The notes below the pieces were generated by a model. That model was not told where the DNA came from. It worked only from the letters and a program-made list of their open reading frames with translations, and searched no databases. A DNA stretch of 64,000 bases from a virus. Positions 9,657-59,521 of this stretch are shown here, piece by piece. How positions within the stretch are numbered: the stretch's first letter is position 1; every line of letters starts with the position of its first letter. The translations under genes were made by a program, and so were the position numbers. The stretch lies in IMG/VR virus record IMGVR_UViG_3300045988_175246; one strand, given 5' to 3'.

Positions 9657-11054
9657 ATGCCAACAACATTGATAATCGTCGCGGCAGTGGCGATACTCAT
9701 CATCCTGCTCGCAACCGCAAGCTACAAGGTCTGCCCCGCCGACCGAGTCATGGTCATCACCGGGCCGGGTGGACGACGCTTCGTCTCCGGCGGAAGCGCG
9801 TTCATCATACCCTTCATCATGCGCGTGGACTGACTCTCCCTCGGAGCGGTGCAGTCGCTCCTGAGAACCGACACGCCGATTCCGACGAAGGACGCAATCC
9901 TCATCGACGTGAACGCCGTCGCCAACTTCCAAATCGCATCCGAGACCATGACCGTGGATGAGAACGGTAAACAGGTGAAGGCATTAGAAAACGCCGCCAA
10001 GAACTATCTGAACCAGTCAAAGGAGCGCATGGAGAAGGACGTGACCCAAGTGCTCCTAGGCAAGCTGCGCGAGGTCATCGGCAGGACCGAGTTGAAGGCA
10101 CTCATGGAGAACAGGGACACGTTCGCCGCGACCGTGGCCGAATCCGCCCGCGTGGACATGGAACGGCTTGGCCTTCAATTGACCACGTTCAACATTCAAG
10201 ACTTCACCGACCGTCAGAACGTCATCGCCAACATGGGCGCTGAAATGGCCGCCGAAATCAGCCGGAATGCGAAGCTCGCGTCCATCAACGCGGAACAGGA
10301 CGTGGCCGTCCGTCAGAACCAGCTCGACCTGAAACGAGCCGAACTCCAATCCATCTCCGACAAGGCGCAGGCCGAGGCCGACGCGGTGAAGGGCATCACC
10401 GCCGCCGAACAGTCCAAGACTCTCAAGGTCAAGGAGCAGGAGGCGGAAATCGCCGCCGCCGAAAAGAAGGCAGTCCTCGAACAGAAGAACGCCGAAATCG
10501 AAGAGCAGAAACTGAACGCGACCATCCGCAAGAAGGCCGACGCCGACAGATACGCCGCCGAACAGCAGGCCGACGCGCAAGTGTACACGACCCGCAAGCA
10601 TGCGGATGCGGAACTGTATCTACGCCAGCAGGAGGCTCAGGCCACCCAATCCACCGCCGACGCGGACGCGCACGCGACCGAAGTCAAAGGCAAGGCCGAG
10701 GGTTCCGCCGCACAGGCCAAGGGTGTAGGCGAAGCCGAGGCAATCCGCGCCCAAGGCCGAGCCTACAATGCGATGAACAACACGTACATCCTCGCCCAAC
10801 AGTACATTCAGATTCTCCCCGACATGGTTCGAGCCGCCGCCGAACCGCTCACCAAGGTTGACCACATCACCATGTATGGCGACGGAAACAGCACGAAGCT
10901 CGTGGGCGACACGGTGAACAGTGTGAGCCAGTTGAGCGAAGGCTTGTCGCAATCCTTGGGCATCGATTTGAAAGCGTTGCTGAACAGTATGGTGTCCGGT
11001 CATGCCGCCGGTTCCGCACTAAGTGGGAAAGGTTCCGAACAGTCCGGAAACTAA
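9657..11054 (+). pseudogene. flotillin/band-7 (SPFH) family gene interrupted by a single in-frame TGA at 9831-9833
   Basis: 9657..9830 encodes the TM helix + YKVCPADRVMVITGPGGRRFVSGGSAFIIPFIMRVD; after TGA the same frame continues LSLGAVQSLLRTDTPIPTKDAILIDVNAVANFQI... through the coiled-coil flotillin body (ORF 9849..11054 in the same frame). Confidence 0.7.
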
Positions 11055-11233: not shown

Positions 11234-12937
11234 GTGAAAACCAAAAACCTGTTGAAGGCAACGGTCGCCACGCTTGTGGCCGGTGCCATGGGTTTGGCTG
11301 GAGTCGGCTCCGCCATGGCGGCTGATACTCGTGTTGACGAGTCCAAGCTTGGTGATGGTGCGGCTGCTCGTCAGACGTTGACCGTCGCTGCTAATGGTGA
11401 TATTAGCAATCGCACGTTGAAGGCTGTGCCGCTCGCCTACTATTCGTATGCGCAGACTGATGGCACTAATATTACCGGCTTTGACCTGATTGACGCGGGC
11501 AAGGCTTCTGCTATTGCTGACGCACTGACGAAAGCCCATATTGACACCCAGTCCAAGAAAGACCAGACTGCCGGATACCGATATAATGCGTCCAATCCGA
11601 TGGTGTGGGTCGTGCAGAATCTCCTTGATTCCGAGAACAGTCCGTGGGCTGGCAAGCTTCGTGACTTCATCGACCAGTTGAAGAACGAGGACGCCGTCAC
11701 CGGCGACAAGGGCACCGCGTTCGCCAAGGGCGCCGACGCCAAGCATATGACCGCATCCGTCCGTCCGGGCGTGTATGCGGTCGTGGACGCCACCAAGACC
11801 GGTCAGGCGTCCATCGTCATGTTCAACGGCACCGGCATCGACGGCAAGACCACGTTGAAGAACGGTGAAAAGACCTACACGCTGGGCACCGTGGACTATA
11901 AGGTGCATGACGCTGAAGTGACCAAGGGTATTACCGGTGTTGAGGATGGTGCTACGGATGAGAAAATCAGTAGGGAGAAGGAATACGCGGTAGCCAAGAC
12001 CTCCATCGGCAAGAAGGTCTCTTTCAAGATGACCAGCAAGGTGCCTGTTTGGACTGGCTACGACCACTACTATTATGCGCTCAACGATACGTATACTAAT
12101 GGCCTGACTTTCAACCCGGATAGTGTGAAGGTCACTGTCGGCGGTAAGGCTTTGACTGCTGGCAAGGATTACAAGGTGACGACCGAGACGGGCAAGTTCC
12201 ATATCCTGTTCGCCCCGACCGCTGACAATTCTTCCGACATCATCGCCGCCAAGACCACGTTCCCGGTCGGTACGCCCGTGCTTGTCACTTATGACATGAC
12301 CGTGAACAAGAACGCCCACGTGGACGGTGTTGACACCAACACGAGCGAAGTCGAATACTCCCACAATCCGAACAACGTCACCGACCATCAGAAGACTCCG
12401 GGCGACACCACTTACGTGTACGTCGGCAAGTTCACTCTGACCAAGACCGATACGAACAACGCTCCGCTCGCGGGTGCCATGTTCCACATCAAGGACGCCA
12501 AGAACAATATCGTCAAGTTCGTCAAGGTGAATGATAACGAGTATCGTGTCGCCGACTCGACTGAGGCCGCTACCGCAAGCGCCGACATCACCACCACCGA
12601 TAAGAACCATGGCGTCATCACCTTGAAGGGCCTGTACGGTGACTACACGGTGACCGAAACCAAGAGTCCGTTCGGTGGCAGCATTCTGCCGGAGTTCACT
12701 CTGACCGTTGGCGTGGCCCAGTCCCAAGACCATAACACCAGCACTTCGTCCCTCACCGCATTCGGACAAGATTCGAACAAGCTGGCCTCCAAGAGCAGTG
12801 ACGATGGAGTGACCGTCATCAACGCCCGCAACATCGCTGACATGCCGAAGACCGGTGCGGTCTGGCTGTCCATCTTCGGCGTGATGACCGTCCTGTTGGC
12901 TGGCGCTTCCGCCCTGCTGCTTCGTCGCAAGGCGTGA
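11234..12937 (+). CDS. sortase-dependent pilin / LPXTG-type surface protein (sorting motif MPKTG)
   Basis: Signal peptide MKTKNLLKATVATLVAGAMGLAGVGSAMAAD; E-box-like YTVTETKSPFGG; C-terminal MPKTG + hydrophobic helix + RRKA tail; GTG start. Confidence 0.8.
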   Translation: MKTKNLLKATVATLVAGAMGLAGVGSAMAADTRVDESKLGDGAAARQTLTVAANGDISNRTLKAVPLAYYSYAQTDGTNITGFDLIDAGKASAIADALTKAHIDTQSKKDQTAGYRYNASNPMVWVVQNLLDSENSPWAGKLRDFIDQLKNEDAVTGDKGTAFAKGADAKHMTASVRPGVYAVVDATKTGQASIVMFNGTGIDGKTTLKNGEKTYTLGTVDYKVHDAEVTKGITGVEDGATDEKISREKEYAVAKTSIGKKVSFKMTSKVPVWTGYDHYYYALNDTYTNGLTFNPDSVKVTVGGKALTAGKDYKVTTETGKFHILFAPTADNSSDIIAAKTTFPVGTPVLVTYDMTVNKNAHVDGVDTNTSEVEYSHNPNNVTDHQKTPGDTTYVYVGKFTLTKTDTNNAPLAGAMFHIKDAKNNIVKFVKVNDNEYRVADSTEAATASADITTTDKNHGVITLKGLYGDYTVTETKSPFGGSILPEFTLTVGVAQSQDHNTSTSSLTAFGQDSNKLASKSSDDGVTVINARNIADMPKTGAVWLSIFGVMTVLLAGASALLLRRKA

Positions 12938-13071: not shown

Positions 13072-13977
13072 ATGGGAGGGGTTTTGGGAAAACATACGGC
13101 GAAACCGAAAGGCTTGGGAAATCGAGCCATAGCGGGACTTCTCTGCCTAATCCTATCCGCCCTGTCCGGAACCATCCCATTCATTCTCATGATTTCGAAC
13201 AGCAGCCAATCCAACCGGTTGACCGACTCTCACGCGCAAGCCGTGGGAAACACTGACGTGAAACGAATCGCCCAAGAGTATGCGGACGCGCAAGCCTACA
13301 ATCAACGCCTATACGAGGAAGGCCAGCCTATTCTTGGTGAGGCGGAAGACCCTTGGACGGGCGTCAACAAGTCCGAATCGGACAACACGTATCGGAAGCA
13401 ACTATCCACCCCCAAGGATGGGGTCATGGCTACCATCAAATATCCACGCTTGGGCATCAACCTGCCCATCCGGCATGGCACGTCGCAAAACGTGTTGGCC
13501 GCTGGAGCCGGACACTTATATGGTTCCAGTCTCCCCGTCGGTGGCAAGAACACGCATACTGTCATATCCGCGCACACGGGTTTGGCCGACCAGCTCATGT
13601 TCGACAAGCTGCGAGGCTTCGGCAGTGAAGCCAAAAAGGGAGACGTCTTCTATCTGATAACCGCCGGACATATGCTCGCCTACAAGGTCACGGATATTAG
13701 CGTGGTAGACCCATCCGATTTCACCAAACTGAAAATCGTCGCCGGAAAAGACCTCGCCACACTTCTAACCTGCACGCCATACGGCATCAACAACAAGCGG
13801 CTCCTAGTGACCGGCACGCGCACCAGCATGCCGCACCCTGCACCCAGACCCGAAAACGCGCCGAAAGACCACACGAACCAATGGCTCATGCTGTACGTCG
13901 GCGGATTCTGGCTTGCGGTAATCATCATCACCATTCTCATCATCCGTAGAAAAAACCACGCAAAGAAGGAACACTAA
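13072..13977 (+). CDS. srtC: class C (pilus-associated) sortase
   Basis: N-terminal TM, VISAHTG histidine motif, TLLTCTPYG cysteine motif, C-terminal TM lid; stop overlaps start of next gene (TAATGA). Confidence 0.85.
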   Translation: MGGVLGKHTAKPKGLGNRAIAGLLCLILSALSGTIPFILMISNSSQSNRLTDSHAQAVGNTDVKRIAQEYADAQAYNQRLYEEGQPILGEAEDPWTGVNKSESDNTYRKQLSTPKDGVMATIKYPRLGINLPIRHGTSQNVLAAGAGHLYGSSLPVGGKNTHTVISAHTGLADQLMFDKLRGFGSEAKKGDVFYLITAGHMLAYKVTDISVVDPSDFTKLKIVAGKDLATLLTCTPYGINNKRLLVTGTRTSMPHPAPRPENAPKDHTNQWLMLYVGGFWLAVIIITILIIRRKNHAKKEH

Positions 13978-16900
13978 TGAGTATTCTCAAAAAGCATGTG
14001 GCACATCCGGTAGCATTATTGGCCGCAATCGCCACACTGGCATCCGGCCTGACATGCATGACCAATTCGGTAGCCTCTCCGAAAGCGCATGCGGACGAGT
14101 TGAAGCCCGCATATGCTACTGCGAAAATCGTTAAGAAAGCCGACGGTACGGGGCATGGCACGAGTTCGCAAACGTTCGTGAATTCGAAGAACGGGTTCGC
14201 CACGGGCGATGATTCCCCTACCGATGGCGTGGTCGCATCCGGTGATACGGTCGAATATTCTCTCACGTTGAACTTCAACGCGGCGGGCAAGCGTACCATC
14301 AACGTGAAGTTCGACTTGGATGACGCGCCGTATTTGCAGACTGCTGACGGTGGTGGCTTCTGCCAGCCGGGACAACTCGTCACCGCGAAGAAAAACAGTG
14401 ACGGCTCCTGCTCCTACACGGTTCCAGCCGGTGGCGTGGAAACCATGACCCAAACCTTCTATCTGAAAGCAAAAGACACGGGAGGCTTGGTCAAGCCGGG
14501 TCAGATTCCGAAAATCGTCGTCGCCCGCGAAGGTGGAACGTCAACCACGTATCGTACGGATGAGCTGACTGTAGTATCCGCTCCGGCGGCTGACTTGGTC
14601 ATTGACAATGGTGGCAATCCGGTGAAAGGTCAATACTCGTATGAGCATCGTACTTATTGGAGTCAGAACACCGATGCGACCGGCGATTTCACTATTCGTG
14701 CCGACGCGTTGACCTATCCGGGTTATTCGTCCACGAAGGGCGCGTCCACCAGCATCGATTGGACTACCAAAGTGGATATTTCCGACTTCCCGCAGGGCAC
14801 CGTGTGGACTGTAGGCGGTCAGCGGATTACCCGTAACAGTGATAAAGAACAGTATCTGACCGTATCCAGTGGCAAGAACGGTGCGGCGGTGACAATCAGC
14901 TACAGGATTCCCGCCGGAACCGACGCGCTCAAAAACATGAAAGAAGGAGACGTCAAATATTACGATGTCCACCTTGTTCCCGACGAAACCGTGTTCAGCG
15001 TCAAAGACGATAACGGCGACGCACTGTTGAACATGGGCAAAGGTGGAGAACCCGGCTGGAACATTGGACGGGACAAGAGCACCTACAACAAGGATACGGG
15101 TGCCCGCGTCGGCTACCCGTATGCGAACAATGACTGGTCACGAGCCATCATCCAACGGCTCAAGCCGACTCCAGCTGGCAAGATTCCACTGTTCGGCAAA
15201 GGACTGCAACGGCCTAACACTGCGTCCAAGACCATGTTCGACAAGGAGAATCTGACGTTCGACGCCGCCGAAGGCAAAGCCGACATCTACCATTACTATT
15301 CCGACGGTTCCGGCGACACCGTGTCCCGTGGAACGCAAGTCAAAACCATTTTGGAAATGTATGCGGCGAACGTTACGGCGGACAAGCTTAAAAACACTAC
15401 GCCGACCATGCAGGACGAGTGGGATAATACGCGCATGCGGTGGGATGGAAGCTTGGAAGTCACCCAGAACGGCGCTCCGGTTTCCGACTACAAAGTTCAA
15501 TGGGCTGATAGCAAAGACAATTGGCATGACGGGGAACCATCCGACACGGACGCTCCGAACGTCAAGAAGATTCGGGTGACGTTCAACCCCGACACTTTGA
15601 CTTTGGGAAAGGATGCGCCGAACGTTCAGGTCACGTTCAACACGCTCGCCATAGCCGACGTGTCCAAAGGCAATGTGGAAGCTTTGGATACGCTGACCGC
15701 ATGGCTTACCGAAGACGATAAGGCAAGCGTCACCAATTGGGTGTGGATTGCCAAGCCGGTAGACCCGACCACCAGTATCGACATCAGTCTGAAAGCCTAC
15801 GATGGTGAAGGCAATCAAGTGTATGCGAACAACAGTTCCAATCACCCGTCCGGAAGCGCAGTCGATTTGACTCCCGGCATGCGAGTGGATTATACGGTCA
15901 CGGAACAGTTGCGCACCATTCTCCTGTCCAATACAAGCATGACGCCGACCATCACGGTGCCGAAACCGAAAGGCTTGTACAATCCGACCTGTGATGATTC
16001 GTTCTGGCAGATGAAAGTGGACGGGAATAATCTCGTGTTCACGCCACGTTCCGGCAAAGTCACGCCGGAAGTAGACCGTATAGGGTCGGCCACTTTGCCT
16101 GACCTGCATTTCAGTGGCATCGTATCCAATCTCGCCACCGGGACTGTGACCGCCAGTGCGAATATGAGCGTGGACGTTGACGAGAACGGCGCATTGCAAG
16201 CCCAAACCATCAAAAGCAATACGCCCAGCGTCCCATTCCCTGTCTCCAATGCGGAAACCAACAGTGGCATCATGCGTGTGAAGACCACGAAGGCTGAAAT
16301 CAGTGACCCGCTTACTTGGGAGTTCAACGTGTACGGCAAGGGCGACGGCCATACCGGCACCATGGATAGCATGCTACTGCTTCCTGCGAATGGTGATGAG
16401 AAGTACGTGCAGGACAAGCTGGTCGAATATGAGCGTGGATACAGCAACTATCATGGCTCCTACGAACTGACCCAGCCCGTCACGGTCAATATGGACAATT
16501 CGACCAGTACGACCGTCTACTATTCAACCACCACCGGAAAGAAGTCGGATAATCCGGCTGACTACGAGTGGAAGACATGGGATGAATTGTCCGCCACCGA
16601 GAAGAAGAACATCACCGCCATCCGACTGACCAGCACTGTCGTCGCGTCCGACGATAAACTGTCCTATTCGGCGGTGAACGGCACCATCACGCTCACCCCA
16701 TCCGACAATGTGAAAGACGACAAGTACACGCTGTGGCTTGGTCGCAACTATTATTCCGACGCTTCCGACAAACCGGCGGGCAACCAGCCGTGGCCTGACG
16801 TGGCGAAGGTAGTGGCCGGTAGTATCAGCGGTACCGTCTGGTGGGATAAGGATGAGAACACGCTCATCGGAGACGGTGAGGAGCACATCGAAGGAGTGGA

Positions 16901-19367
16901 AGTCACCCTCGGCAAGCAGGATTCAAGCGGAGGCTGGCAGACCGTCAAAACGGTGAAGACTGACAAGGACGGCCATTACGAGTTCGACCTGCTCCACTCC
17001 GGCACCTACCGCACTTCGGTGAAACGCAACACTGGCACCAGTACGGGTGATGGCGTGCAGACGCAGGTCAAAACCTACTACAACAAGCTGGAAGACGTGG
17101 TGAACACGCGCAGCTGGTCGGACAAAATCAAGTCCAACGCGAAAGACACGTCCGACGACATCCACCTAGGCATCGGCGCAGACCAGAAGAACGTGGATTA
17201 CGGTTACGCGAAACCAGACCCGAAAGCCACCGTGGACAAAACCGTCACCGGCACCAGTTGCACTGATACGAAATGCGTTATCAACTGGGATGTCAAAGTA
17301 CAGAATTCTGGCACTAGTCGTTTTGACACGTCCAGTGTCGTTTCTGACCGTATGAGCGCTGATGTGCATGATGTTTCCGCTACCGCCGGTACGGTTTCCA
17401 TCGAGTCTGGTGGCGCGAAGCAGGTTGCGACGAGTGGCGACCATAAGTTTGTGTTGACGAGTGAGGGCTTGTTGTATGCGTGGGGTAACAACCAGTATGG
17501 TCAATTGGGTTTCAAGCCTGACTCCACGAACACGAGTACTCCGGTGAACGTGAACAAGCCGACCATCATCAACGGTAGTTGGCTGAAAGTCGCCGCCGGA
17601 GGCAAGCATTCCGCCGCCATCAGCACGGACGGACACTTGTATACGACTGGTTGGAATGGTAGCGGCCAATTGGGTACGGGTGATACGGATAATCGTGACC
17701 AGTGGACTCTAGTCGCAGAAGATAAGACGTTTGTTGACGTGGCGTGCGGCAACCAGTTCACTGTGGCGATAGCAAGTGACGGCACCTTGTGGGTGGTCGG
17801 AAAAGTCAGTTCCACCTCGTATTCAACGTGGACGCAAATCCAGTCGGGTAAGACGTTCACGCAGGTCAGCGCCAGCACGTACAGGTGGGTCGCGTTGACG
17901 TCCTACGGCGGTTGTGTGGTGGACGGCGACGAGTTTTTCTCTATTGGTTTCACGCAAGTTGTCGCCTCATTCGGCAACGCCTACGGGTTGACTGACGCGG
18001 GTACAGTGATAGTGCTCGTCGGCGGAGGTGATAGCGGTATCGACCAGTCCAATGTGTCTAATCTGAGGTACATCACCCGTATCGGTGGCGGATACAACAC
18101 TTTCTACGCCATCGACAAGAACCAACACTTGTGGGCGGCTGGCTGGAATGGTGACGGCCAATTAGCGAACGGTAAGACCGGTACAGGCAGGTATTGGACC
18201 AACGGCAGTACGAGCGGCAACGCGGATATTGTTTCCACGCCAATCGATACGGGCATTACCGCATCCGACGTTGCGGGCGGCGACCGTGACGTGCTCATTG
18301 TCGGCAAGCAGGTCATGATTGCGGGCTTCGACCCGTATGGTGACGGCAAGACGGGTGGCGCACGTTCCACCGGTTTGAAGGGAATGGTCGTATCGTCCGA
18401 CCCGACCGCCGTACCGGTCGAACCGTTGAGCGAGTCCACGGAGAAGGGGTTGACGACCCGCACGTACAATCTGCCGTATGCGATTGAGTCGGGCGGCTAT
18501 GTCATCTACCATTTCACTGGCACCGTTGACCGTGAAACTGCGGATACTACCAAGTGGTCTCCAACTGAGAAAGACGAGTGGGTCAAGAAGAATACGAAGA
18601 CCATTCTCAACCAAGCATGGTTCACCTCCGAACACACGCCATACTCAGGCACGCCACATGCAAGCGGCAAAACCAAGCCGGACCCTCCGAACGCATCCAA
18701 ACTGGATACGAACACGAATGACGTGACCGGCAATCCGACATGCCGCACCGACACCGACTATACGGAGGAAGGACACCAACACTGGTTCAGCACCAGCGAC
18801 GAAGACTCCTGCGACCAAGTCGGCACCATCATCACACCAACCACCAGCGCGAAGAAACTCGGCACCATCAGCGGCCTGTATTGGGAGGACACGGACAAGG
18901 ACGGTATTCGAAGCGACAACGAGTCGAACCGGTTCGCCAACCAGACCGTAATCCTGTACGACAAGAACGGCAAGCAGGTGGCATCCACCAAGACCGACAA
19001 GGACGGCAAGTACAAGTTCGAACACTTGGACGCGGACGGCGACCAGTACACCATCCAATTCAGCCGCGTCGCCCACCAAGAGTTCACCAAGCCGGATGCG
19101 AACGACATGGACATTCCGAATGACGCGAGTTCCACCGACTCCGACGCGAACACGAGCGACGACAAGTACGGTGAATCCACGTTCACCATCATCCTCACAC
19201 AGGATAAGCCGGACAAGGAGAATGTGGACGCGGGCGTCCTACCAGAAACATGGATGATGAGCATGCCCCACACCGGCATGGGCTTACTGTTGCCAATCCT
19301 CATACTCGTCAGCATTCTGGGACTCGTCACCGCAATCATCCTGTTGAGAAAGGAAGACCGTAAGTGA
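13977..19367 (+). CDS. large cell-wall-anchored adhesin (1796 aa) with RCC1-like beta-propeller repeats and Cna-B/SdrD-like domains; sorting motif MPHTG
   Basis: Signal peptide; RCC1-type repeats (LYAWGNNQYGQLG, HLYTTGWNGSGQLGTG, HLWAAGWNGDGQLANG) at ~17.4-18.2 kb; Cna-B-like GTVWWDKDENTLIGDGEEHIEGVEVTL and GLYWEDTDKDGIRSDNESNRFANQTVILYDKNGK; C-terminal MPHTG + TM + RKEDRK. Confidence 0.8.
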   Translation: MSILKKHVAHPVALLAAIATLASGLTCMTNSVASPKAHADELKPAYATAKIVKKADGTGHGTSSQTFVNSKNGFATGDDSPTDGVVASGDTVEYSLTLNFNAAGKRTINVKFDLDDAPYLQTADGGGFCQPGQLVTAKKNSDGSCSYTVPAGGVETMTQTFYLKAKDTGGLVKPGQIPKIVVAREGGTSTTYRTDELTVVSAPAADLVIDNGGNPVKGQYSYEHRTYWSQNTDATGDFTIRADALTYPGYSSTKGASTSIDWTTKVDISDFPQGTVWTVGGQRITRNSDKEQYLTVSSGKNGAAVTISYRIPAGTDALKNMKEGDVKYYDVHLVPDETVFSVKDDNGDALLNMGKGGEPGWNIGRDKSTYNKDTGARVGYPYANNDWSRAIIQRLKPTPAGKIPLFGKGLQRPNTASKTMFDKENLTFDAAEGKADIYHYYSDGSGDTVSRGTQVKTILEMYAANVTADKLKNTTPTMQDEWDNTRMRWDGSLEVTQNGAPVSDYKVQWADSKDNWHDGEPSDTDAPNVKKIRVTFNPDTLTLGKDAPNVQVTFNTLAIADVSKGNVEALDTLTAWLTEDDKASVTNWVWIAKPVDPTTSIDISLKAYDGEGNQVYANNSSNHPSGSAVDLTPGMRVDYTVTEQLRTILLSNTSMTPTITVPKPKGLYNPTCDDSFWQMKVDGNNLVFTPRSGKVTPEVDRIGSATLPDLHFSGIVSNLATGTVTASANMSVDVDENGALQAQTIKSNTPSVPFPVSNAETNSGIMRVKTTKAEISDPLTWEFNVYGKGDGHTGTMDSMLLLPANGDEKYVQDKLVEYERGYSNYHGSYELTQPVTVNMDNSTSTTVYYSTTTGKKSDNPADYEWKTWDELSATEKKNITAIRLTSTVVASDDKLSYSAVNGTITLTPSDNVKDDKYTLWLGRNYYSDASDKPAGNQPWPDVAKVVAGSISGTVWWDKDENTLIGDGEEHIEGVEVTLGKQDSSGGWQTVKTVKTDKDGHYEFDLLHSGTYRTSVKRNTGTSTGDGVQTQVKTYYNKLEDVVNTRSWSDKIKSNAKDTSDDIHLGIGADQKNVDYGYAKPDPKATVDKTVTGTSCTDTKCVINWDVKVQNSGTSRFDTSSVVSDRMSADVHDVSATAGTVSIESGGAKQVATSGDHKFVLTSEGLLYAWGNNQYGQLGFKPDSTNTSTPVNVNKPTIINGSWLKVAAGGKHSAAISTDGHLYTTGWNGSGQLGTGDTDNRDQWTLVAEDKTFVDVACGNQFTVAIASDGTLWVVGKVSSTSYSTWTQIQSGKTFTQVSASTYRWVALTSYGGCVVDGDEFFSIGFTQVVASFGNAYGLTDAGTVIVLVGGGDSGIDQSNVSNLRYITRIGGGYNTFYAIDKNQHLWAAGWNGDGQLANGKTGTGRYWTNGSTSGNADIVSTPIDTGITASDVAGGDRDVLIVGKQVMIAGFDPYGDGKTGGARSTGLKGMVVSSDPTAVPVEPLSESTEKGLTTRTYNLPYAIESGGYVIYHFTGTVDRETADTTKWSPTEKDEWVKKNTKTILNQAWFTSEHTPYSGTPHASGKTKPDPPNASKLDTNTNDVTGNPTCRTDTDYTEEGHQHWFSTSDEDSCDQVGTIITPTTSAKKLGTISGLYWEDTDKDGIRSDNESNRFANQTVILYDKNGKQVASTKTDKDGKYKFEHLDADGDQYTIQFSRVAHQEFTKPDANDMDIPNDASSTDSDANTSDDKYGESTFTIILTQDKPDKENVDAGVLPETWMMSMPHTGMGLLLPILILVSILGLVTAIILLRKEDRK

Positions 19368-19378
19368 AAGGAACAAAA

Positions 19379-20344
19379 ATGGGCATGCACGCCAGTAACC
19401 GTGTGAACCGCCACTTGGGACAACGAATCCTCGCCACCCTCGCCATCGTGGCGGCGGTCTGCGGCGGACTCATCACCGGTAGCGCCATCGCTTCGGAACC
19501 GGCCAAATGTTCGACCGGCGTGGACAAGGTCTGCTATGCGGGCTACAACGCCGCAGGATTGAAGCAGATTGCCGACGATTTGAGCGACAAGGGCAAGGGA
19601 AGCGCTTACTATGCGGAAATGGAGGATAATCTGACTAAGGGCACGCAAGGCTCGCTCACACTGTCGGACGGTTCCAATCTTCCATTCCGGCTCATCGGCA
19701 TCCTCCACGACGACAAGGCTGATGGTAGCGGCAAAAAGGCTGGCTTGACGTTCATGGCATGGAACGCGTTACCGAAAGCGTACTGCATAAACGGCGTCAT
19801 GCCAACCGACAACACGACCACCTGCACGAACGGCTACACCAACAAGGGCGGATGGCGCGACAGTAATCTCCGTCAATGGATGAACAATGGGGAAATCTGG
19901 AACCAATTCCCCACCGACTTCCAAAACAACGTGACCACCGTATTGAAACAAACCAACAACATGGACTACGGAAACACTTCCGGCTCCGCCGCATCCGCCA
20001 CAGCAGACAAGGTATGGCTCGTATCCTACAGGGAACTCGTACCAACCATATACGACGGGTGGAAAAGCTCTAATGGATTCCAAGCGTTAAGTCAGGAGGG
20101 AAGCCAATACGAGTATTTCCAAGGCAAGGTGATGCACAACTATTCAAACAATAATATTCTGTCTGGAATCTACGGAACCGTTTCCGGTTCAGCACTCTCC
20201 GGTGCCAACAGCCTCAGTTGGTGGGAGCGTTCGCCCGACCCGAGCTACAACTACGATTTCCTCCTAGTGTACTCGGGCGGCGACCCCAGCTGCGACTACT
20301 TTGCTGGCTATCGCTACTCCGTTGTCCCCGCTTTCTCCTTCTAA
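19379..20344 (+). CDS. DGR target (variable) protein, secreted; variable region at C-terminus
   Basis: Signal peptide (ILATLAIVAAVCGGLITGSAIAS); last ~50 codons are the VR homologous to the TR at 20965-21117; ORF track start 19364 (GTG), probable ATG 19379. Confidence 0.75.
   Translation: MGMHASNRVNRHLGQRILATLAIVAAVCGGLITGSAIASEPAKCSTGVDKVCYAGYNAAGLKQIADDLSDKGKGSAYYAEMEDNLTKGTQGSLTLSDGSNLPFRLIGILHDDKADGSGKKAGLTFMAWNALPKAYCINGVMPTDNTTTCTNGYTNKGGWRDSNLRQWMNNGEIWNQFPTDFQNNVTTVLKQTNNMDYGNTSGSAASATADKVWLVSYRELVPTIYDGWKSSNGFQALSQEGSQYEYFQGKVMHNYSNNNILSGIYGTVSGSALSGANSLSWWERSPDPSYNYDFLLVYSGGDPSCDYFAGYRYSVVPAFSF
20178..20330 (+). repeat. DGR variable region (VR)
   Basis: ~150 nt near-identical to 20965-21117; almost all mismatches fall where the TR has A (aac->agc/ctc/tac/gac/ggc etc.). 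Confidence 0.8.
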
Positions 20345-20357
20345 TCCCCCATCTTTA

Positions 20358-20379
20358 GGGGTGGGGTTCATCCCACCCC
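20358..20379 (+). promoter_or_regulatory. GC-rich hairpin immediately 3' of VR/stop codon (DGR homing-associated hairpin candidate)
   Basis: GGGGTGGG-gttcat-CCCACCCC, 8-bp perfect stem, 14 nt after the stop codon. Confidence 0.5.
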
Positions 20380-20450
20380 GCTAAAACATCACACGAAAGA
20401 AGCCCCTATGACAGTACCCACCAGCAAGCGGACAAAAGCAAAAAGCGAAT

Positions 20451-20930
20451 ATGCGAACCAAGCGAGAATCGTACTCTACGCCACCAGAAACCTCTTCCGG
20501 AAAATGGCCCAAAAGCCGAGACAACATCGAAACCATACACGTCATGCACATCGCCTACGACATGTACACAGCCGCCTACAGCGCCGACACCATCTACGCG
20601 AGCACCCTCGAAGAGCATAAGATGAAACTGCAACTCTTATGCAAGGCCCAAGGAATGCTGAACGCACTCTCCGGCCTCGTAGACGACTGGATAGACTATC
20701 CACCACGAGAACGCGACATGAAAGCCTACCAGAACAGTCAGGAAGGCGACCCCACCTACAATCCCGTAATCAAGGAGAAGAAATTTGTCAACTATGCGGG
20801 CACACTCTACAAAGCCATGGGGGTGTTCACGGGGGCAGTCCGATACGAGCGAGACCAGTTGAAGAAAGCCAAAACCGTCGAGTCAAAGACCACCACTAGA
20901 ATGGACACTTGGGTTCAACCCCAAATATAA
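20451..20930 (+). CDS. avd: Avd-like accessory variability determinant (helical bundle protein); possible frameshift near 5' end
   Basis: Located between VR and TR as in canonical DGRs; helical basic protein; an upstream overlapping frame (20408..) encodes a more Avd-like N-terminal helix (SEYANQARIVLYATRNLFRKMAQKPRQH). Confidence 0.55.
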   Translation: MRTKRESYSTPPETSSGKWPKSRDNIETIHVMHIAYDMYTAAYSADTIYASTLEEHKMKLQLLCKAQGMLNALSGLVDDWIDYPPRERDMKAYQNSQEGDPTYNPVIKEKKFVNYAGTLYKAMGVFTGAVRYERDQLKKAKTVESKTTTRMDTWVQPQI

Positions 20931-20964
20931 CTAAACAAAACCGGCCATATCCAAAATGGTGTTT

Positions 20965-21117
20965 CCGTTTCCGGTTCAGCACCCTCCGGTGCCAACAACA
21001 ACAATTGGTGGGAGCGTTCGCCCAACCCGAACAACAACAACAATTTCCTCCAAGTGAACTCGAACGGCGACCCCAGCTACAACAACAATGCTAACAATCG
21101 CTACTCCGTTGTCCCCG
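20965..21117 (+). repeat. DGR template region (TR)
   Basis: AAC/AAT-rich copy of the VR (ggtgccaacaacaacaattggtgggagcgttcgcccaacccgaacaacaacaacaat...); ORFs 20909..21094 and 21054..21239 over it are non-coding. Confidence 0.8.
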
Positions 21118-21311
21118 ATTCCTCTTACCAAAAACTAACATCAGATAGGCCAGTAGCCCAATGGGTGAAAGCCTCCCGAAGGGGAAGGGGATATGGTCGA
21201 ATGCGCTGCCCCTCGAAAAATGGGTTGCGCGTGAAATAGGTTGAGGGAGATATTAAGACTGTCGGAAACGACGGATACTCGCCCCTTAAGCTGGGCGTCC
21301 AACATCATTGC

Positions 21312-22541
21312 ATGTCTTGGGTTGTTGCCGACGACCTGCCCTCAACCATTCTTTTCTCTTTCCCTAGTGAAGGAAGCATTAAAATCGTGAATGCGAGTCA
21401 AAGACGTAGAAGACGCCAACGCAGACTGCAACAACGCTCGGATGATAAGTACAGGAAGCTCCACCGTTACATCGACTTCCAACAAACATTCGGATTCGAC
21501 GCGCTCTACCAAGCCGCAAGAAAATGCAAACGCGGCGTCACGTGGAAAAACACAGTGTTGAACTTCGACAATAGGCGTGCCGTCAACTGTTGGAAACTCG
21601 CCCAAGAATTAGAGGACGGCACATACAAGAAGAGAGCGCCAATCCGATTCGACATTTCCGAACGAGGCAAACTCCGCCACATCAGCGCGGTATCCTTCCG
21701 AGACCGGGTGGTGCAACGCGCCTTATGCGACAACAGTCTCGTCCCCATCGTGGAAAGCCAACTGATATACGATAATGCGGCAAGCCTACCGAAACGTGGA
21801 ACATCGTTCGCCCGAAAACGGTTCGAACTACACTATAAGCGGGCTTTGGGCAAATGGGAGCATCCGTATGCTGTCATCTTCGACTGTTCCAACTATTTCG
21901 GAAGTATCAGCTCCCAACGAGCGTTCGATATGATTTCCACCCTGTACCGGAGCATCGCCCGCACCGGACGGGAGAAGCAGGATGTGGAACGGATTCTAAC
22001 CGTATTGAGAATCTTCGTATTGGACGAACCACACTTAGGGTTAGGTAATCAGACGAGCCAAACCATGGCTATCTGGTATTTGAACAAGGTTGACCACTGG
22101 TGCATGTCGCAAGGATTCTACGGACGGTATATGGATGATGCCTACTGTTTCTGCGAGAATCGTGAACAGGCCGAACGTGTGTTGGCCGGTTATGAGCGGC
22201 GTGTCAACCAATTGGGATTGCGGTTGAACAAGCATAAGACCCGCATAGTGGACTGTCATACCGGTCAACTCACATTCCTGAAACGCGTATACAGTGTACA
22301 GGATGACGGCAGTATTCTTATCCGCATGCACCATAAGGCGTTGCGTGCAAGCCGACGGCATGCGTGTAACCTTATCTGCTCATATGATGGCGTGCATGTG
22401 GGATTGAGGACAGTTCAGGATTCTTGGACGAGCCATGAGAGCACACTGTCGGGTCTAACTCACCGTCGTGGACTGTGCGCTCGGGAGAAAGCGTGGTATC
22501 GGAGGCATTGTGAAATGCGGAAGCTGGCTTTTCACCCGTGA
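21312..22541 (+). CDS. DGR reverse transcriptase
   Basis: RT motifs: HISAVSFRDRVVQRAL, AVIFDCSNYFGSI, YGRYMDDAYCF (YMDD catalytic box), LNKHKTRIV. Confidence 0.85.
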   Translation: MSWVVADDLPSTILFSFPSEGSIKIVNASQRRRRRQRRLQQRSDDKYRKLHRYIDFQQTFGFDALYQAARKCKRGVTWKNTVLNFDNRRAVNCWKLAQELEDGTYKKRAPIRFDISERGKLRHISAVSFRDRVVQRALCDNSLVPIVESQLIYDNAASLPKRGTSFARKRFELHYKRALGKWEHPYAVIFDCSNYFGSISSQRAFDMISTLYRSIARTGREKQDVERILTVLRIFVLDEPHLGLGNQTSQTMAIWYLNKVDHWCMSQGFYGRYMDDAYCFCENREQAERVLAGYERRVNQLGLRLNKHKTRIVDCHTGQLTFLKRVYSVQDDGSILIRMHHKALRASRRHACNLICSYDGVHVGLRTVQDSWTSHESTLSGLTHRRGLCAREKAWYRRHCEMRKLAFHP

Positions 22542-22865
22542 TATTCCGGACTTTCCAGATTGTGTGGTGGAGGGGCGCAATCTGCTGGAAGCTTTGGATG
22601 GGACGAGAAAAAGATTGGCCGTCCGATTAGCAGAAATGGTGGCGCAGAATCTTCCGCTTCCTCAAGAGAGTCTTTTGGATGAGATTTCGTGAGGCTTGGA
22701 TTGTATCGTATTTCACTCGGCATGCTTGTCGGCTAGTTTTTCTTCCCGGCTTGGTGTTACACTGGGTTTACTTGCATTTCCTTCCTCGGGACTTCGCCCA
22801 TGTGGGGCTTTAGAGGTTATCAGCGCATTGGTCAGAGTATGCCGTTTGAGTGAAAGGAAACTGTC

Positions 22866-23495
22866 ATGGCAGGTTTTGATGATATTACGGTCACTCGCAG
22901 TGATGGCCGTTTGAAGGTTAAGGCTCCGTATAATCCGTTGTTCGCCCGTCGCTCCCGCGCGTTGGGCGGAACGTTTGATGACAAGTTGAAGACTTGGACG
23001 TTCAATGTTCGTGTGGAAAGGCTGGTGTTCGAAGCTTTAGACAAATACTTCTGGTGGCATAAGGGCGTGGACGCTGAAAAGCGCGTCACTCTAACCATTG
23101 ACCCCTACGACTACTTGTACGCGTACTCCAAGCAGGATAGCGACATTATCTGGTTCGCTGGTCGAATCCTAGTCGAAAAATATCAGCCCGACCGTCCACC
23201 GCGCATGATGCCGAATGTGGCTCTCGTGGATGGCATGTGGCCTAAAACCGGCTTGTATACGGGGTTGAATCTCAGTCCCGACAAACTCCGATTATTGGTA
23301 TGGGATGTTCCCACCAGTTTTCTGGAACGATTGTCGTCCGGCAAGTATGAGTTGTCTGAGCCGGATGGTGACACGTTGACTGCGGTTGACGTTCGTATTC
23401 AGGCTGTGGAGGAACGGTTAGGCCGGTTGAGGGAACTCCGAACCCGACTCGCCTCTAATAGTGAGGATGTGAATGATGCTCTCCGTGCCGATTGA
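22866..23495 (+). CDS. hypothetical protein
   Basis: 209-aa ORF downstream of the RT. Confidence 0.45.
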   Translation: MAGFDDITVTRSDGRLKVKAPYNPLFARRSRALGGTFDDKLKTWTFNVRVERLVFEALDKYFWWHKGVDAEKRVTLTIDPYDYLYAYSKQDSDIIWFAGRILVEKYQPDRPPRMMPNVALVDGMWPKTGLYTGLNLSPDKLRLLVWDVPTSFLERLSSGKYELSEPDGDTLTAVDVRIQAVEERLGRLRELRTRLASNSEDVNDALRAD

Positions 23496-24480
23496 TGGTC
23501 AAGTCCAGTCGCGTCTCATTCCGCCCACGTTCGTGGAAGACAACATCAGCGACATGTTCAAGGCTGTGGACGCCGGACACAATATCGTCGTGACGGCAGT
23601 GGACGAGTACGGTAATCGAACCAGTATTACCACGCCGGATAATGTGAATCATGACATGCTGGGGCGTTCTCTCGAATTCGCGTCCCATCCCGTACTGATG
23701 CGGAATGTGCGCCGTTGGATGGTTTGGCTGTTGCAAGCGCAATACTGCAAGGATTACAAGTGGGATACGAACAGGCTTGGAGGTTGGATGGAAGTGTTGG
23801 GTTTACCAGCCGACCTTGATGTTCCCGTAACGGAGGAACATTTACGCGTGTTGAAGCCTGTGTTTAACAAGGATGATGCCGACCCGTATCGGCTTGTCGC
23901 ACGATACGACAAGCAACATTATGCTTCATGCACCCTCGGCACTCTCATACGGTTAGCTGAACAAACCACGCCGAACTATGCCTTGAACAATCCCACCCGC
24001 TGGTGTCAAACCGACCGATACCGCAAACTCAGCATCCAACCCAATCCGAAAGAAAACTGGGACGGAATGGACAGGGTACGTGACTGTTGGAGCGGATGCG
24101 AATGGGCATACCCCGCATTGGAACGCTACTATAATCCGATTCGACTATTACGCGACGAATACCGGCGGGGAGGACTACCTGAAACCTTCCACTATCCAAT
24201 ACACACGACAAGAGGCGAATACCGGTTGGCGAAAGGACAAATCAGCCCCCACGCAACAATCCTCCTCAACGGCAAGCCGGTAGGACTCATGTTCAGCGAC
24301 GATTGCGAGGAACCATTCACCGACCGGATACCACCCGAATGGTGTGCCACACCCTTACCGGAAAACTATAAGACCACGCCACTCAACCGAAACATTCCCG
24401 TAAACGGCGAATTCAAACCATCATTCCAGCAAGCCATGCTGGGATTCGTGGAATGGTATGAGAAAACGCACAAGGGATAG
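23473..24480 (+). CDS. hypothetical protein
   Basis: 335-aa ORF, start overlaps previous gene. Confidence 0.45.
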   Translation: MMLSVPIDGQVQSRLIPPTFVEDNISDMFKAVDAGHNIVVTAVDEYGNRTSITTPDNVNHDMLGRSLEFASHPVLMRNVRRWMVWLLQAQYCKDYKWDTNRLGGWMEVLGLPADLDVPVTEEHLRVLKPVFNKDDADPYRLVARYDKQHYASCTLGTLIRLAEQTTPNYALNNPTRWCQTDRYRKLSIQPNPKENWDGMDRVRDCWSGCEWAYPALERYYNPIRLLRDEYRRGGLPETFHYPIHTTRGEYRLAKGQISPHATILLNGKPVGLMFSDDCEEPFTDRIPPEWCATPLPENYKTTPLNRNIPVNGEFKPSFQQAMLGFVEWYEKTHKG

Positions 24481-24587: not shown

Positions 24588-25745
24588 CTAGTTCTCCGAG
24601 CGTTCGCTGATATTCTCCCGCATCTGCAAATAAGCCCCATGCTCACGCAAGTAATCCCGCAAATACGGCATTTTGAAAGCGACTTCACCGTAACCGACCG
24701 GCTCAATCAAATCGTTCTCAATCAGCTTGGTTCTATACACGTTGGCGAACTGTGGCGAACGGTTCAACCGACGGGCGATTTCACCTGTATTCGACACCGT
24801 ATCATCCACCGACATGGCAAGCAGATAGTTCACCGCATGGGATGGCAAGCCATGCAATGCTGGGGCGTGAACCATATCCCCTAGTTTGGCTTGGGCTTTT
24901 TCGATACCCTTGACCGCGTCCTCCTCGGTCACTTGATTCACATGGCCGTTGGTTTCGGAAACCCTCCAAGCCCAATAACCCACCAGCTGAATCATGAACG
25001 GATAACCATGAGTGGCATTGGTCAACCGTATCAACGTTTCCATCCCGGCTTTCTTCTCCCCGCTGAAAGACTCCTCGAATGCTTTCAGAACCTTCTCCGT
25101 TGGCACGGAACCCAAATGATACCGTTCTGCCCGTTGAAGGAAGGTGATGGCATTATCCGACAGCACGTCGTTCACGGCGGACGGTAACCCAGCGAAAATG
25201 AACGCGATGTTCCGTCCTTCGCGGATAAGATGTTGCACGGCAGTGGACAAAGCTCTGATTTCGTCCATGGAACCGGATTGCACTTCGTCCAATGTGATGA
25301 GAATGCCCTGCTTGCTTTCATTCATCTTGTCCAAACGTTTGCCGACCGCTTGACGTAGCGTCAAGGAACGTTCCTCATTGTGTTCGAGTTCGATTCTCCC
25401 CAAACTCAGTTCCAGATTCCCTACATCACCTTTCAACCCGACGCTAGGCATGTCGTAGGCGGATATGCGAGTCGTGTCCTTGCCGGTAAGTGCGTCCACC
25501 AGTCTTTGGGTGAAACCTCTATCGGCGCTTTCGTTATAGACTTTCCAGCCTTGCTTCTGCGCGTGTGTTCCTAACGTGTCCAGCATGACTGTTTTCCCTA
25601 CACCTCTGGCTCCGGTGAGGAACATCAGCCGTCCGGGGCTTCCTACACCGTCTTTCAGCGCATAGTCGAAGTCTTCGATGATTTCTTCTCGTCCGACGAG
25701 TATCGGCGGGATACGTCCGGCGGTTGGTTTGAACGGATTGGTCAT
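24588..25745 (-). CDS. ATP-binding protein (AAA-type ATPase domain + C-terminal winged-helix-like region)
   Basis: Walker A FLTGARGVGKTVML, Walker B ILITLDEVQ; probable start MTNPF (internal Met of ORF 24588..25808). Confidence 0.7.
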   Translation of the reverse strand: MTNPFKPTAGRIPPILVGREEIIEDFDYALKDGVGSPGRLMFLTGARGVGKTVMLDTLGTHAQKQGWKVYNESADRGFTQRLVDALTGKDTTRISAYDMPSVGLKGDVGNLELSLGRIELEHNEERSLTLRQAVGKRLDKMNESKQGILITLDEVQSGSMDEIRALSTAVQHLIREGRNIAFIFAGLPSAVNDVLSDNAITFLQRAERYHLGSVPTEKVLKAFEESFSGEKKAGMETLIRLTNATHGYPFMIQLVGYWAWRVSETNGHVNQVTEEDAVKGIEKAQAKLGDMVHAPALHGLPSHAVNYLLAMSVDDTVSNTGEIARRLNRSPQFANVYRTKLIENDLIEPVGYGEVAFKMPYLRDYLREHGAYLQMRENISERSEN

Positions 25746-25981
25746 GTCTGTTTCCTTGATTTTATAATAATTATAATAAGTATAATACTTTAAAAAAGCA
25801 TGTACCAAGGGGTTAAGTTCGATAATAGGCAGCTTTGTCGAGAGTAGAGGTTGACGACCTAAACGGAAGTGGTTTAAAATAGATTCTTGTTTGAGATAAG
25901 GTCACTTTTCTAAAAGGCATTGAGGGACGGTTTCCGTTTTGGTCTCCGTCCCTCTTTTTTGTATTGTTTCCACGCTTGAAG

Positions 25982-26496: not shown

Positions 26497-27321
26497 ATGA
26501 ACAACATCGACAGCATCATCGAACGCATCAACAACCTCATGGCAATAGCCGAAAACGAAGCATCCAGCGACAATGAGGCGCAAATGGCGTTCGAGCGGGC
26601 ACAGAAACTCATCAACGAATATCGTATCGAAGACTGGAAACGCGACCGCACCCGCACGAACAAGCCAATCATCGAACGTGGCGTGAACGTAAGCAAAACC
26701 ACCATCTACCATCAGCAAGGCTACCTTGCGACCATCATCGCCCAAGCTAACGAATGCCGCGCCTACATTCACGAAAGCCGGTGTGGCGGAAGGATTGAGG
26801 AACGTGCCGTCATGTTCGTAGGCGAGGAGGACGATGTGAACGCCGCAGTCCTTCTCTTCCAAAGCATCGACCTATACTGCTCAGTCCACGCCCGCACTAG
26901 CTACGCGGACATGATTGACCAGCACGCCAAAGCGTACTATGAGGACAACAAGGAATACGTCGAAACGCATTACGGACGTGAATCCTATCCGACGCTGACG
27001 GAATGCAAACAGTACATGCGTCGTGATTATCCACGCGCCAAGTTCTACTATGGTTATCGCGGTGGATTCAACGAACGTTTGAGCGAACGTTTCGAGGAGC
27101 TTCGCAAGCAGAGTCTCGCCATTCCTTCCGGTCGTGAGCTGGTGTCATGCAAGAGTCAGCGTCTGAACGAGTATTTTGACAAGCTTGAGCTGGTGCCGGG
27201 TCGTGCGGCCACTGCTCGTGGTAGCAAGGATGGTTTTGCTCGTGGTGTGAGTGACGCGAACAATGTGGGTTTGGGTTTGTCTGAAATGGGTGTTTCGTCC
27301 CATGCTTTGCTGAATGCCTGA
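26497..27321 (+). CDS. DUF2786-like protein
   Basis: N-terminus IIERINNLMAIAENEASSDNEAQMAFERAQKLINEYRI typical of DUF2786 plasmid/phage proteins (recalled, not searched); 274 aa. Confidence 0.45.
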   Translation: MNNIDSIIERINNLMAIAENEASSDNEAQMAFERAQKLINEYRIEDWKRDRTRTNKPIIERGVNVSKTTIYHQQGYLATIIAQANECRAYIHESRCGGRIEERAVMFVGEEDDVNAAVLLFQSIDLYCSVHARTSYADMIDQHAKAYYEDNKEYVETHYGRESYPTLTECKQYMRRDYPRAKFYYGYRGGFNERLSERFEELRKQSLAIPSGRELVSCKSQRLNEYFDKLELVPGRAATARGSKDGFARGVSDANNVGLGLSEMGVSSHALLNA

Positions 27322-28655: not shown

Positions 28656-28735
28656 TTTTCAGGATTGTGGCCTCGTCGTTTTGGCGGGGCTTTTGTTTTT
28701 TGGCGTGTCCGTGTTGCCTGTTTTACAAAGTGCGC

Positions 28736-30541: not shown

Positions 30542-30592
30542 GCGCTGGTCGGCATTTTTGTTTTTCGTATTGTGATATTTCAGACCATGTGT

Positions 30593-46993: not shown

Positions 46994-47065
46994 TGTCGAA
47001 TAGGGGTCTGGGCTTACTTTTGTGTTCAGACCCCTGTTTCGTCTTTCATATCATTCCTGTCTTGT

Positions 47066-47088
47066 TATACTGGGGATGTTTGCAAATG
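47066..47088 (+). promoter_or_regulatory. conserved promoter/leader motif copy 20 (TATACTGGGGATGTTTGCAAATG)
   Basis: preceded by hairpin GGGTCTG...CAGACCC; first gene 47093. Confidence 0.4.
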
Positions 47089-47092
47089 CCGG

Positions 47093-47290
47093 ATGAAACA
47101 AAGAAGTGGCGAATTGAATATCTCCAACATGTCGGAAGAGACGATAGAAGAAAACCTACCCGACCTGTCCCCGCATTTAGAGGATGGGTTCAGTCTGAAA
47201 CAGCTTGAAACACTCCACGATTATGCCATGGAAGCTTTCAAGGCCGGAATCGAATACGCCAACAACAATCAAAAAGGAGCCACAAATTGA
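47093..47290 (+). CDS. hypothetical small acidic protein (65 aa)
   Basis: MKQRSGELNISNMSEETIEENLPDLSPHLEDGFSLKQLETLHDYAMEAF... Confidence 0.35.
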   Translation: MKQRSGELNISNMSEETIEENLPDLSPHLEDGFSLKQLETLHDYAMEAFKAGIEYANNNQKGATN

Positions 47291-59511: not shown

Positions 59512-59521
59512 GGCGGGTACA

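Follow-up and report, generated by a model that had tools for sequence, protein, structure and literature searches.

Does a gene that ends in a near-copy of a neighbouring non-coding segment, and that directly follows the genes of a sortase-dependent pilus, belong to a diversity-generating retroelement (DGR), and if so, what does the element diversify and what kind of replicon carries it? These questions are raised by positions 19379-22541 of a stretch of 64,000 nucleotides from the IMG/VR record IMGVR_UViG_3300045988_175246, the whole of which is called the window here. Apart from DGRs, no natural system is known that targets hypermutation to proteins in prokaryotes. In this study, the segment is interpreted as a DGR of canonical layout, in which a target gene with its variable repeat (VR), a hairpin, an accessory gene, a template repeat (TR), a spacer and a reverse transcriptase (RT) gene follow one another, carried on a Bifidobacterium megaplasmid similar to pMP7017. 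The probability of this reading is put at about 0.93. Judged by its sequence, the element has every feature expected of a DGR except a recognisable bAvd protein.

The two repeats provide the first line of evidence (Table 1). The initial annotation, made from the letters of the window alone, had described the TR as a near-copy of the VR that departs from it at adenines and is rich in AAC codons, and rigorous pairwise alignment bore out all three points at exactly the positions proposed. The repeats align without a gap over 153 nt at a start-to-start offset of 787 nt, and 21 of their 22 mismatches fall on TR adenines, which make up 43 of the 153 nt (Fisher p=5.5e-13). The adenine mismatches comprise 11 A>G, 9 A>T and 1 A>C changes, and every one of them occupies codon position 1 or 2 of the target open reading frame (ORF); the sole remaining mismatch in the window concerns a TR cytosine at position 20196. 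Read in register with the target, the 51-codon TR stretch contains 13 AAC and 4 AAT triplets. Moreover, an independent repeat search recovered the same pair (167 nt, 84% identity). A scan of the 64-kb window that scored non-adenine TR positions only returned no second VR, the next-best site being mismatched at 61 of 110 positions.

The same pattern was found when assemblies were compared with one another. The related contigs are labelled L001 onwards, and the counts refer to 27 related loci with intact VR/TR pairs. These loci hold 520 VR/TR mismatches at TR adenines and 10 elsewhere, and 25 distinct VRs accompany 13 distinct TRs. The TR is 100% identical in the window, L011 and L013-L016. Within the group formed by the window, L013 and L015, which share an identical TR and upstream flanks of 800 nt that are 99.9-100% identical, the VRs are 86-90% identical, and 26 of the 27 variable VR sites lie at TR adenines; the corresponding figure for the group of L001, L002, L003 and L005 is 28 of 29. 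VRs thus differ where TRs are identical and flanks nearly so, which shows recent activity of the element family. Heterogeneity of the VR in populations, which had been set beforehand as a test that could overturn the DGR assignment, is thus present between assemblies, with 520 of 530 mismatches at TR adenines. Furthermore, the exact RT protein occurs on 245 metagenome contigs and is indexed in 372 blocks of the collection, and the 90%-identity cluster of the target holds 1229 distinct sequences, of which each listed member sits on only 1-4 contigs. The repeats also undergo codon-sized changes of length, as the VR is one codon longer than its own TR, within the AAC-rich stretch, in two loci (L014, about 8862-9017, and L043), and one AAC is missing from both TR and VR in one lineage (L008, TR 9657-9806).

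The RT encoded downstream of the TR, which had been recognised at the outset by its YMDD box, was confirmed. Its LGNQTSQ motif fits [ILV]GxxxSQ, the signature of DGR RTs. The best match among PDB sequences is 8ub7_A (1.7e-13), an entry titled 'DGR ribonucleoprotein reverse transcriptase' that represents a complex of a DGR RT with Avd, and in this alignment LGNQTSQ stands opposite IGSLTSQ and RYMDD opposite RYMDD. In tblastn searches, the best-covered plasmid match was the RT of a cyanobacterial plasmid of Acaryochloris, which adjoins an annotated avd gene, and the best phage match was the RT of Roseburia phage Shimadzu (35% identity), again adjoined by an annotated Avd; Bordetella phages were also among the phage matches. 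A search of genome contigs with the RT returned no relatives. These motifs and the nearest PDB, phage and plasmid relatives assign the protein to the DGR type. A rival reading takes the RT for that of a group II intron, a retron or a defence system and the repeat for a simple duplication of part of the gene's 3' end, and NCBIfam models of the group II intron RT (83.6 bits), Drt and retron families do match the protein weakly. However, these scores are far below the respective cutoffs of 300, 450 and 235 bits, among solved structures the protein comes closest to the DGR RT of complex 8ub7, and no intron RNA family was found. Ordinary divergence is ruled out because 520 of 530 mismatches fall on one template base. 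This explanation is therefore considered extremely improbable, and the combination of an ordinary duplication with a non-DGR RT was rejected on the strength of the mismatch pattern and the 8ub7 match.

Table 1. Features of the window, with the elements of the retroelement listed first, then the pilus genes and the remaining backbone genes
Feature	Position	Strand	Remarks
DGR target gene	19379-20344	+	321 aa; DUF6273; C-type-lectin-like fold; no LPXTG-type motif
Variable repeat (VR)	20178-20330	+	codons 267-317 of target
IMH-like 3' end of VR	20331-20344	+	identical in 14/14 loci with intact VR end
GC-rich hairpin	20358-20379	not assigned	past target stop
Accessory gene	20408-20930	+	Avd-like four-helix-bundle protein; 173 aa when intact; split here by extra A
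Template repeat (TR)	20965-21117	+	non-coding
IMH*-like 3' end of TR and TR-RT spacer	21118-21311	+	presumed 3' part of DGR RNA
DGR-type RT	21312-22541	+	409 aa; LGNQTSQ and YMDD motifs; Pfam RVT_1 7.8e-14; PHROG 1423 2.7e-56
Backbone pilin of sortase-dependent pilus	11234-12937	+	GramPos_pilinBB 1.4e-18, SpaA 4.8e-09; MPKTG, hydrophobic stretch and basic tail at end
Sortase	13072-13977	+	Pfam Sortase 4.5e-21
Surface adhesin	13977-19367	+	1796 aa; RCC1 propeller repeats; C-terminal MPHTG, hydrophobic stretch and basic tail
AAA ATPase	24588-25808	-	weak Orc1/Cdc6-like match (AAA_16 in relatives)
DUF2786/DUF7168 protein	26497-27321		
TnpB/IS605-family gene	31936-33378	-	78-88% nucleotide matches to known Bifidobacterium plasmids
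RNA ligase (PHA02142 OB-fold and RNA_ligase domains) beside R2K-type ATP-grasp protein	45938-48285		
VirB4-like AAA_10 ATPase (886 aa), 280-aa ORF, 778-aa cell-wall hydrolase	56012-61858		

The sequences that border the repeats were examined for the cis elements of a DGR. The VR side ends in CTTTCTCCTTCTAA and the TR side in ATTCCTCTTACCAA; 9 of 14 bases match, the differences include non-adenine positions, and both ends are invariant in related loci. By analogy with other DGRs, the two ends behave as expected of an initiation of mutagenic homing (IMH) and IMH* pair and would fill these roles. A GC hairpin had been reported 14 nt after the VR stop. It is present, at a spacing of 13 nt, and consists in the window of 8 Watson-Crick pairs and one G-T pair (folding energy as DNA -9.9 kcal/mol, z -2.5). 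In near-identical contigs its place is taken by a perfect stem of 10 bp, and the hairpins of relatives read GGGGGTGGGG-TTCAT-CCCCACCCCC or TGGTGGGTGGGG-TTCAT-CCCCACCCACCA, with stems of 10 bp and 12 bp. The two versions differ by compensatory changes on both arms around an unchanged TTCAT loop, and the structure is kept even in loci of Bifidobacteriaceae assemblies that have neither a TR nor an intact RT. The hairpin is not followed by a run of T and hence lacks the form of a typical intrinsic terminator. The spacer between TR and RT is presumed, on the model of other DGRs, to form the 3' part of the DGR RNA.

The mechanism proposed for this element is modelled on that of BPP-1 and other DGRs, as are the secretion of the target and its association with the pilus. 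The region from the accessory gene through the TR to the RT would be transcribed, and the RT, with the accessory four-helix-bundle protein as its partner, would copy the TR RNA into cDNA, misincorporating nucleotides opposite template adenines. This cDNA would then replace the VR. The fixed, VR-specific IMH-like end and the downstream GC hairpin would set the direction of transfer, and the TR would therefore stay constant. Because the TR adenines lie in AAC and AAT codons, about 17 surface residues near the C-terminus of the target would be randomised. The DUF6273 protein, encoded by the fourth gene of the pilin-sortase-RCC1 adhesin operon, would most likely act with the surface fibre of that operon as its variable ligand-binding component.

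Several observations weigh against this reading. In the window, a frameshift interrupts the accessory gene. The C-terminus of the target, which ends in ...RYSVVPAFSF, lacks the LPXTG-like motif, the hydrophobic stretch and the basic tail that make up a sorting signal, and the protein is therefore no conventional sortase substrate; with such a C-terminus, its physical attachment to the pilus is conjectural. The RNA of the TR-RT spacer folds no better than its shuffles (z -1.2), and no Rfam family, of intron RNA or for the spacer RNA, matched anywhere across 19000-23500. IMG/VR catalogues relatives as viral contigs, and the assignment to a plasmid is thus provisional. Finally, activity is deduced from differences between assemblies.

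The most direct of these objections concerns the accessory gene. It appears in the window as two ORFs, 20408-20620 and, in another frame, 20451-20930, and if one A is dropped from the AAAA run at 20501-20504, they join into a predicted protein of 173 aa. Database homologs read the junction NLFRKWPKSRDNIETIHV in a single frame, and five close relatives have three As at the matching site where the window has four. If the insertion were real, the copy in the window would be an inactive DGR, currently switched off and frozen by the frameshift, whose VR/TR pattern records past activity only. Besides the extra A itself, which splits the gene, this explanation draws on signs that loss of activity is common in the family: the 90% cluster of the accessory protein (P0001) is rich in members from other assemblies that are frameshifted or truncated at varied points (P0003, P0175-P0188), the accessory gene is absent from 5 of 32 informative loci through fusion of VR and TR, and two Bifidobacteriaceae assemblies keep only relics of a DGR. 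On the other side, over 11.6 kb the window differs from the near-identical contig L011 by 5 single-base homopolymer indels and by no substitution, the window-specific indels recur in the comparison with L015 (three of them within the hairpin), and at each of the other 26 loci whose VR/TR pair is intact, the accessory gene is intact as well, with 167-173 aa. On these grounds, the insertion is probably a homopolymer sequencing error, and an inactive copy is considered unlikely. The comparisons suggest that the source assembly of the window carries homopolymer errors, and further apparent frameshifts in the window may be artefactual as well. Differences of homopolymer length from near-identical contigs were located at 20361, 20371, 20375, 25954, 28690-28695, 29192, 30331, 30480 and 30554-30560. 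The frameshifted variants of the accessory cluster, one of which has two compensating indels near the frameshift site of the window, may represent frequent natural inactivation or else assembly noise.

The fused loci were also inspected. VR and TR are fused to one copy in L009, L011, L016, L017 and L045, at about 8855-9928 in L009, L011 and L016 and at 8927-9928 in L017. These loci lack about 790 bp between the repeats, including the accessory gene; their crossover points vary, and the target frame runs on into the flank of the TR to give a protein of 357 or 333 aa. The fusions represent either real recombination that kills the DGR or loop-skipping by the assembler; in L016 real decay is favoured because this contig also lacks the pilin and sortase genes.

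The identity of the accessory protein deserves separate consideration. An Avd-like helical protein had been proposed between VR and TR; its position and fold held up, the ORF named for it (20451-20930) proved to be only the downstream part of the gene, and the relation to bAvd found no support. The product of this ORF had no match in Pfam, NCBIfam, PHROGs or PDB sequences, and the Pfam bAvd model (PF22296) did not match the reconstructed protein or 22 of its relatives even at E<=1. In a control, the Avd proteins of BPP-1 and Acaryochloris matched the same model at 7e-36 and 4e-21. The accessory family is small: a search of 1.84 billion proteins at E<=1e-3 yielded 34 representatives. Its profile aligned with the annotated Avd of phage Shimadzu (hhalign 89%, E 2.2e-6, 120 columns), which is the sole detectable relative outside the family, and did not match the Avd of BPP-1 or Acaryochloris. 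The protein is therefore Avd-like in fold, in position and in one profile match only, its sequence being unrecognisable as bAvd; it belongs to a divergent four-helix-bundle family that current profile libraries miss.

What, then, is diversified? The target matches DUF6273 in Pfam at 1.9e-18, and a structure model built from an alignment of 36 sequences (predicted local distance difference test score, pLDDT, 84.5; predicted template modelling score, pTM, 0.83) has a C-type-lectin-like fold, one of the two folds (C-type lectin or FGE-like) for which a check of its C-terminus had been proposed. The VR encodes residues 267-317, which form the hypervariable block of the family alignment, enclosed in a conserved scaffold of the pattern WWERS...GDPS...R.SVVPAFSF. 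Residues 1-37 are disordered in the model and show a pattern of charge followed by hydrophobic residues that ends in AIA|SE. This segment resembles a signal peptide, and the protein would thus be secreted. A lipoprotein was also considered and rejected, as the Cys of 'AVCGG' is not conserved among homologs. The exact target protein of the window was not on record in a protein look-up.

The target stands in an operon for a sortase-dependent pilus. Upstream of it lie genes for a sortase and for two proteins with sorting signals, the backbone pilin and a large adhesin, of which the latter matches the Pfam families WD40_RLD (2.8e-46), RCC1_2, SdrD_B (1.5e-22) and SpaA. The link to a pilus locus with a 1796-aa MPHTG adhesin, which had already been pointed out, therefore stands, and the order of the operon is conserved beyond this element. 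The target does follow the adhesin directly, as had been claimed; the claimed overlap of its start with the adhesin stop would require the GTG at 19364, and the gene calls of relatives favour the equivalent of the ATG at 19379, 11 nt past that stop. The order of pilin, sortase, RCC1 adhesin and DUF6273 protein was also found in assemblies of Bifidobacterium moukalabense and of Bifidobacteriaceae bacterium MCC02031, on contigs of 745 kb and 444 kb with housekeeping genes on the flanks, where the operon proteins are 47-63% identical to those of the window and the target gene, as called, shares 14 nt with the adhesin gene. One Senegalimassilia genome has the same order, with proteins 45-53% identical, at a locus placed by tblastn only. 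A search of genome contigs with the target alignment returned only 6 Coriobacteriia loci.

At the loci of B. moukalabense and MCC02031 (L021, 10972-11250; L024/L025, 11020-11490), the hairpin survives along with the opening codons of the accessory gene (MTVPASKR), and a fragment of 71 aa of the RT remains in L024/L025. No TR or intact RT was found there, and these two Bifidobacteriaceae loci are accordingly regarded as DGR relics. No trace of a DGR was found at the Senegalimassilia locus. Since the gene order persists where the DGR is gone, the target is a conserved member of the pilus operon with or without its diversifier.

The DGR could nevertheless be real and its target unrelated to the pilus, a free secreted lectin, directed for example at host glycans or other cells, that merely shares the operon. 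The missing sorting signal agrees with such a role, as does a C-terminus that consists of the VR itself, and DUF6273 is also known from settings that have nothing to do with pili, among them an IgA peptidase and receptor-binding proteins of phages. However, the four genes keep their order at 45-63% identity in the two Bifidobacteriaceae assemblies and Senegalimassilia, the target and adhesin genes overlap by 14 nt in the former two, and the order outlasts the DGR. A free lectin is a real possibility, to which somewhat less than even odds are given. The initial suggestion of a secreted ligand-binding protein tied to surface structures is thus upheld in its operon link and lectin-like fold, and the physical contact with the pilus that it implies can be proposed only by inference. 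A more specific model, in which the DUF6273 lectin is a non-covalent hypervariable binding module of the sortase pilus or of the RCC1 adhesin, possibly for recognition of host glycans or mating partners, and in which the cassette came from gut-phage DGRs and was repeatedly lost, is offered tentatively and with considerable doubt.

Identity to relatives differs from part to part of the cassette. In a comparison of positions 17867-23495 of the window with L001, it amounts to 75-78% for the adhesin, the body of the target and the accessory gene, to 90% for the TR and to 95-97% for the spacer, the RT and the downstream gene. Contigs with an identical RT protein carry either type of target allele, of 310 or 321 aa, and this, together with the mosaic identity, points to exchange of modules within the cassette. 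Exceptional conservation of the spacer was also considered and was rejected, as an identity of about 97% is common to the RT and the backbone. The identity of the spacer thus follows the mosaic pattern, in which it resembles the RT at about 97% while the adhesin, target and accessory genes are at 75-78%, and does not indicate constraint on an RNA.

The replicon that carries the cassette was assessed from its backbone. The related contigs are 176-226 kb long, and relatives among the uncultivated virus genomes (UViG) of IMG/VR, L033-L049, measure 90-217 kb. Backbone genes encode DnaB, a VirB4-like ATPase and a cell-wall hydrolase that combines several domains (lysozyme, glucosaminidase and CHAP). 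The ATPase shares 66.5% identity with its counterpart on the Bifidobacterium breve megaplasmid pMP7017, which has the same local gene order, lysozyme gene included; across pMP7017 and related Bifidobacterium longum megaplasmids the range is 63-66%. Positions 56012-61858 are thus assigned by homology to a Gram-positive conjugation module, and the carrier resembles, in these sequences, a pMP7017-like conjugative megaplasmid of Bifidobacterium. Megablast of 9-33 kb found nothing among phages and only the TnpB gene among plasmids, and no phage structural genes were detected in the window by profile scans, which included a PHROG scan of ten further window proteins. The viral listing in IMG/VR may be a misclassification, or the replicon may be a phage-plasmid. 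Searches of PLSDB recovered no plasmid with the DGR target, a close RT or the RCC1 adhesin, and the pilus-DGR module therefore appears specific to a lineage that is not yet catalogued.

Other genes of the window were also recorded. The position of the TnpB/IS605 gene varies between related contigs. The AAA ATPase and DUF2786/DUF7168 genes lie just downstream of the DGR, and both are kept in most related contigs. The RNA ligase and the ATP-grasp protein look like a pair for nucleic-acid repair or modification.

Comparison with known systems places the element more precisely. It shares with the prototype DGR of the Bordetella phage BPP-1 (mtd-VR, avd, TR, brt) the order of target with VR, accessory gene, TR and RT, a VR at the 3' end of a target with C-type-lectin fold, adenine-specific differences and a GC hairpin after the VR, and the BPP-1 RT is the nearest solved relative of the present one. 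It differs in the length of the RT (328 aa in BPP-1, 409 aa here), in an accessory protein of 173 aa that lacks both a bAvd match and homology to the BPP-1 Avd by hhalign, and in the nature of the target, which is a phage tail fibre tip in BPP-1 and here a predicted secreted protein of a bacterial pilus operon in a Gram-positive, actinobacterial host. The most similar cassettes are those of gut phages. DUF6273 proteins have been published as DGR targets in Toutatisvirus and, under the name 'tentaclins', in phages nd4 and nd12, and these phages and Shimadzu share with the window the target family, the C-type-lectin-like fold and the C-terminal VR. In contrast to them, the cassette of the window sits in a pilus operon on a plasmid-like backbone in which no phage structural genes were found.

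The closest functional analogue is provided by Bacteroides, where DGRs borne on integrative and conjugative elements (ICEs) diversify the tips of type V pili, the main example of DGR diversification in gut commensals. In both cases a conjugative element of a gut commensal carries a target with a C-terminal VR of C-type-lectin fold directly downstream of pilus structural genes. The systems differ in the pilus, which is of type V in Bacteroides and sortase-assembled and Gram-positive here, and in the vehicle, an ICE in the former and a megaplasmid in the latter. Moreover, the target of the window lacks both a pilin module and a sorting signal and thus does not itself form a covalent subunit of the pilus. 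In Legionella pneumophila, a DGR on a mobile island diversifies the surface lipoprotein LdtA, which is lipid-anchored and exported by the twin-arginine (Tat) route. That system is likewise cellular and borne by a mobile element, with a surface-exposed C-type-lectin target, but a lipobox conserved across homologs is absent from the present target. The megaplasmids of the pMP7017 group share with the window the gene order of VirB4-like ATPase, hypothetical protein and lysozyme and the TnpB elements, whereas the pilus-DGR module is absent from PLSDB plasmids. DGRs have already been recorded in Bifidobacterium, and no study combining DGR, pilus and sortase was found among the papers searched. The mechanism is thus of a known kind, and its Gram-positive, sortase-pilus setting was not found described in those papers.

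The interest of the element lies in this setting on a megaplasmid, in its unrecognised Avd-like family and in the range of intact, fused and relic versions. The targets of DGRs in gut commensals are only starting to be understood, the pilus-DGR element is abundant in metagenomes, and Bifidobacterium is studied mainly for host colonisation and probiotic traits. The intact, VR/TR-fused and relic versions offer natural comparisons for when accelerated evolution is kept and when it is discarded. If the lectin does serve as a non-covalent module of the pilus, the type V pilus tips that DGRs diversify in Bacteroides would have a Gram-positive counterpart in this system. Should the variable lectin act on the pilus, the adhesion specificity of bifidobacteria could be both hypervariable and horizontally transferable.

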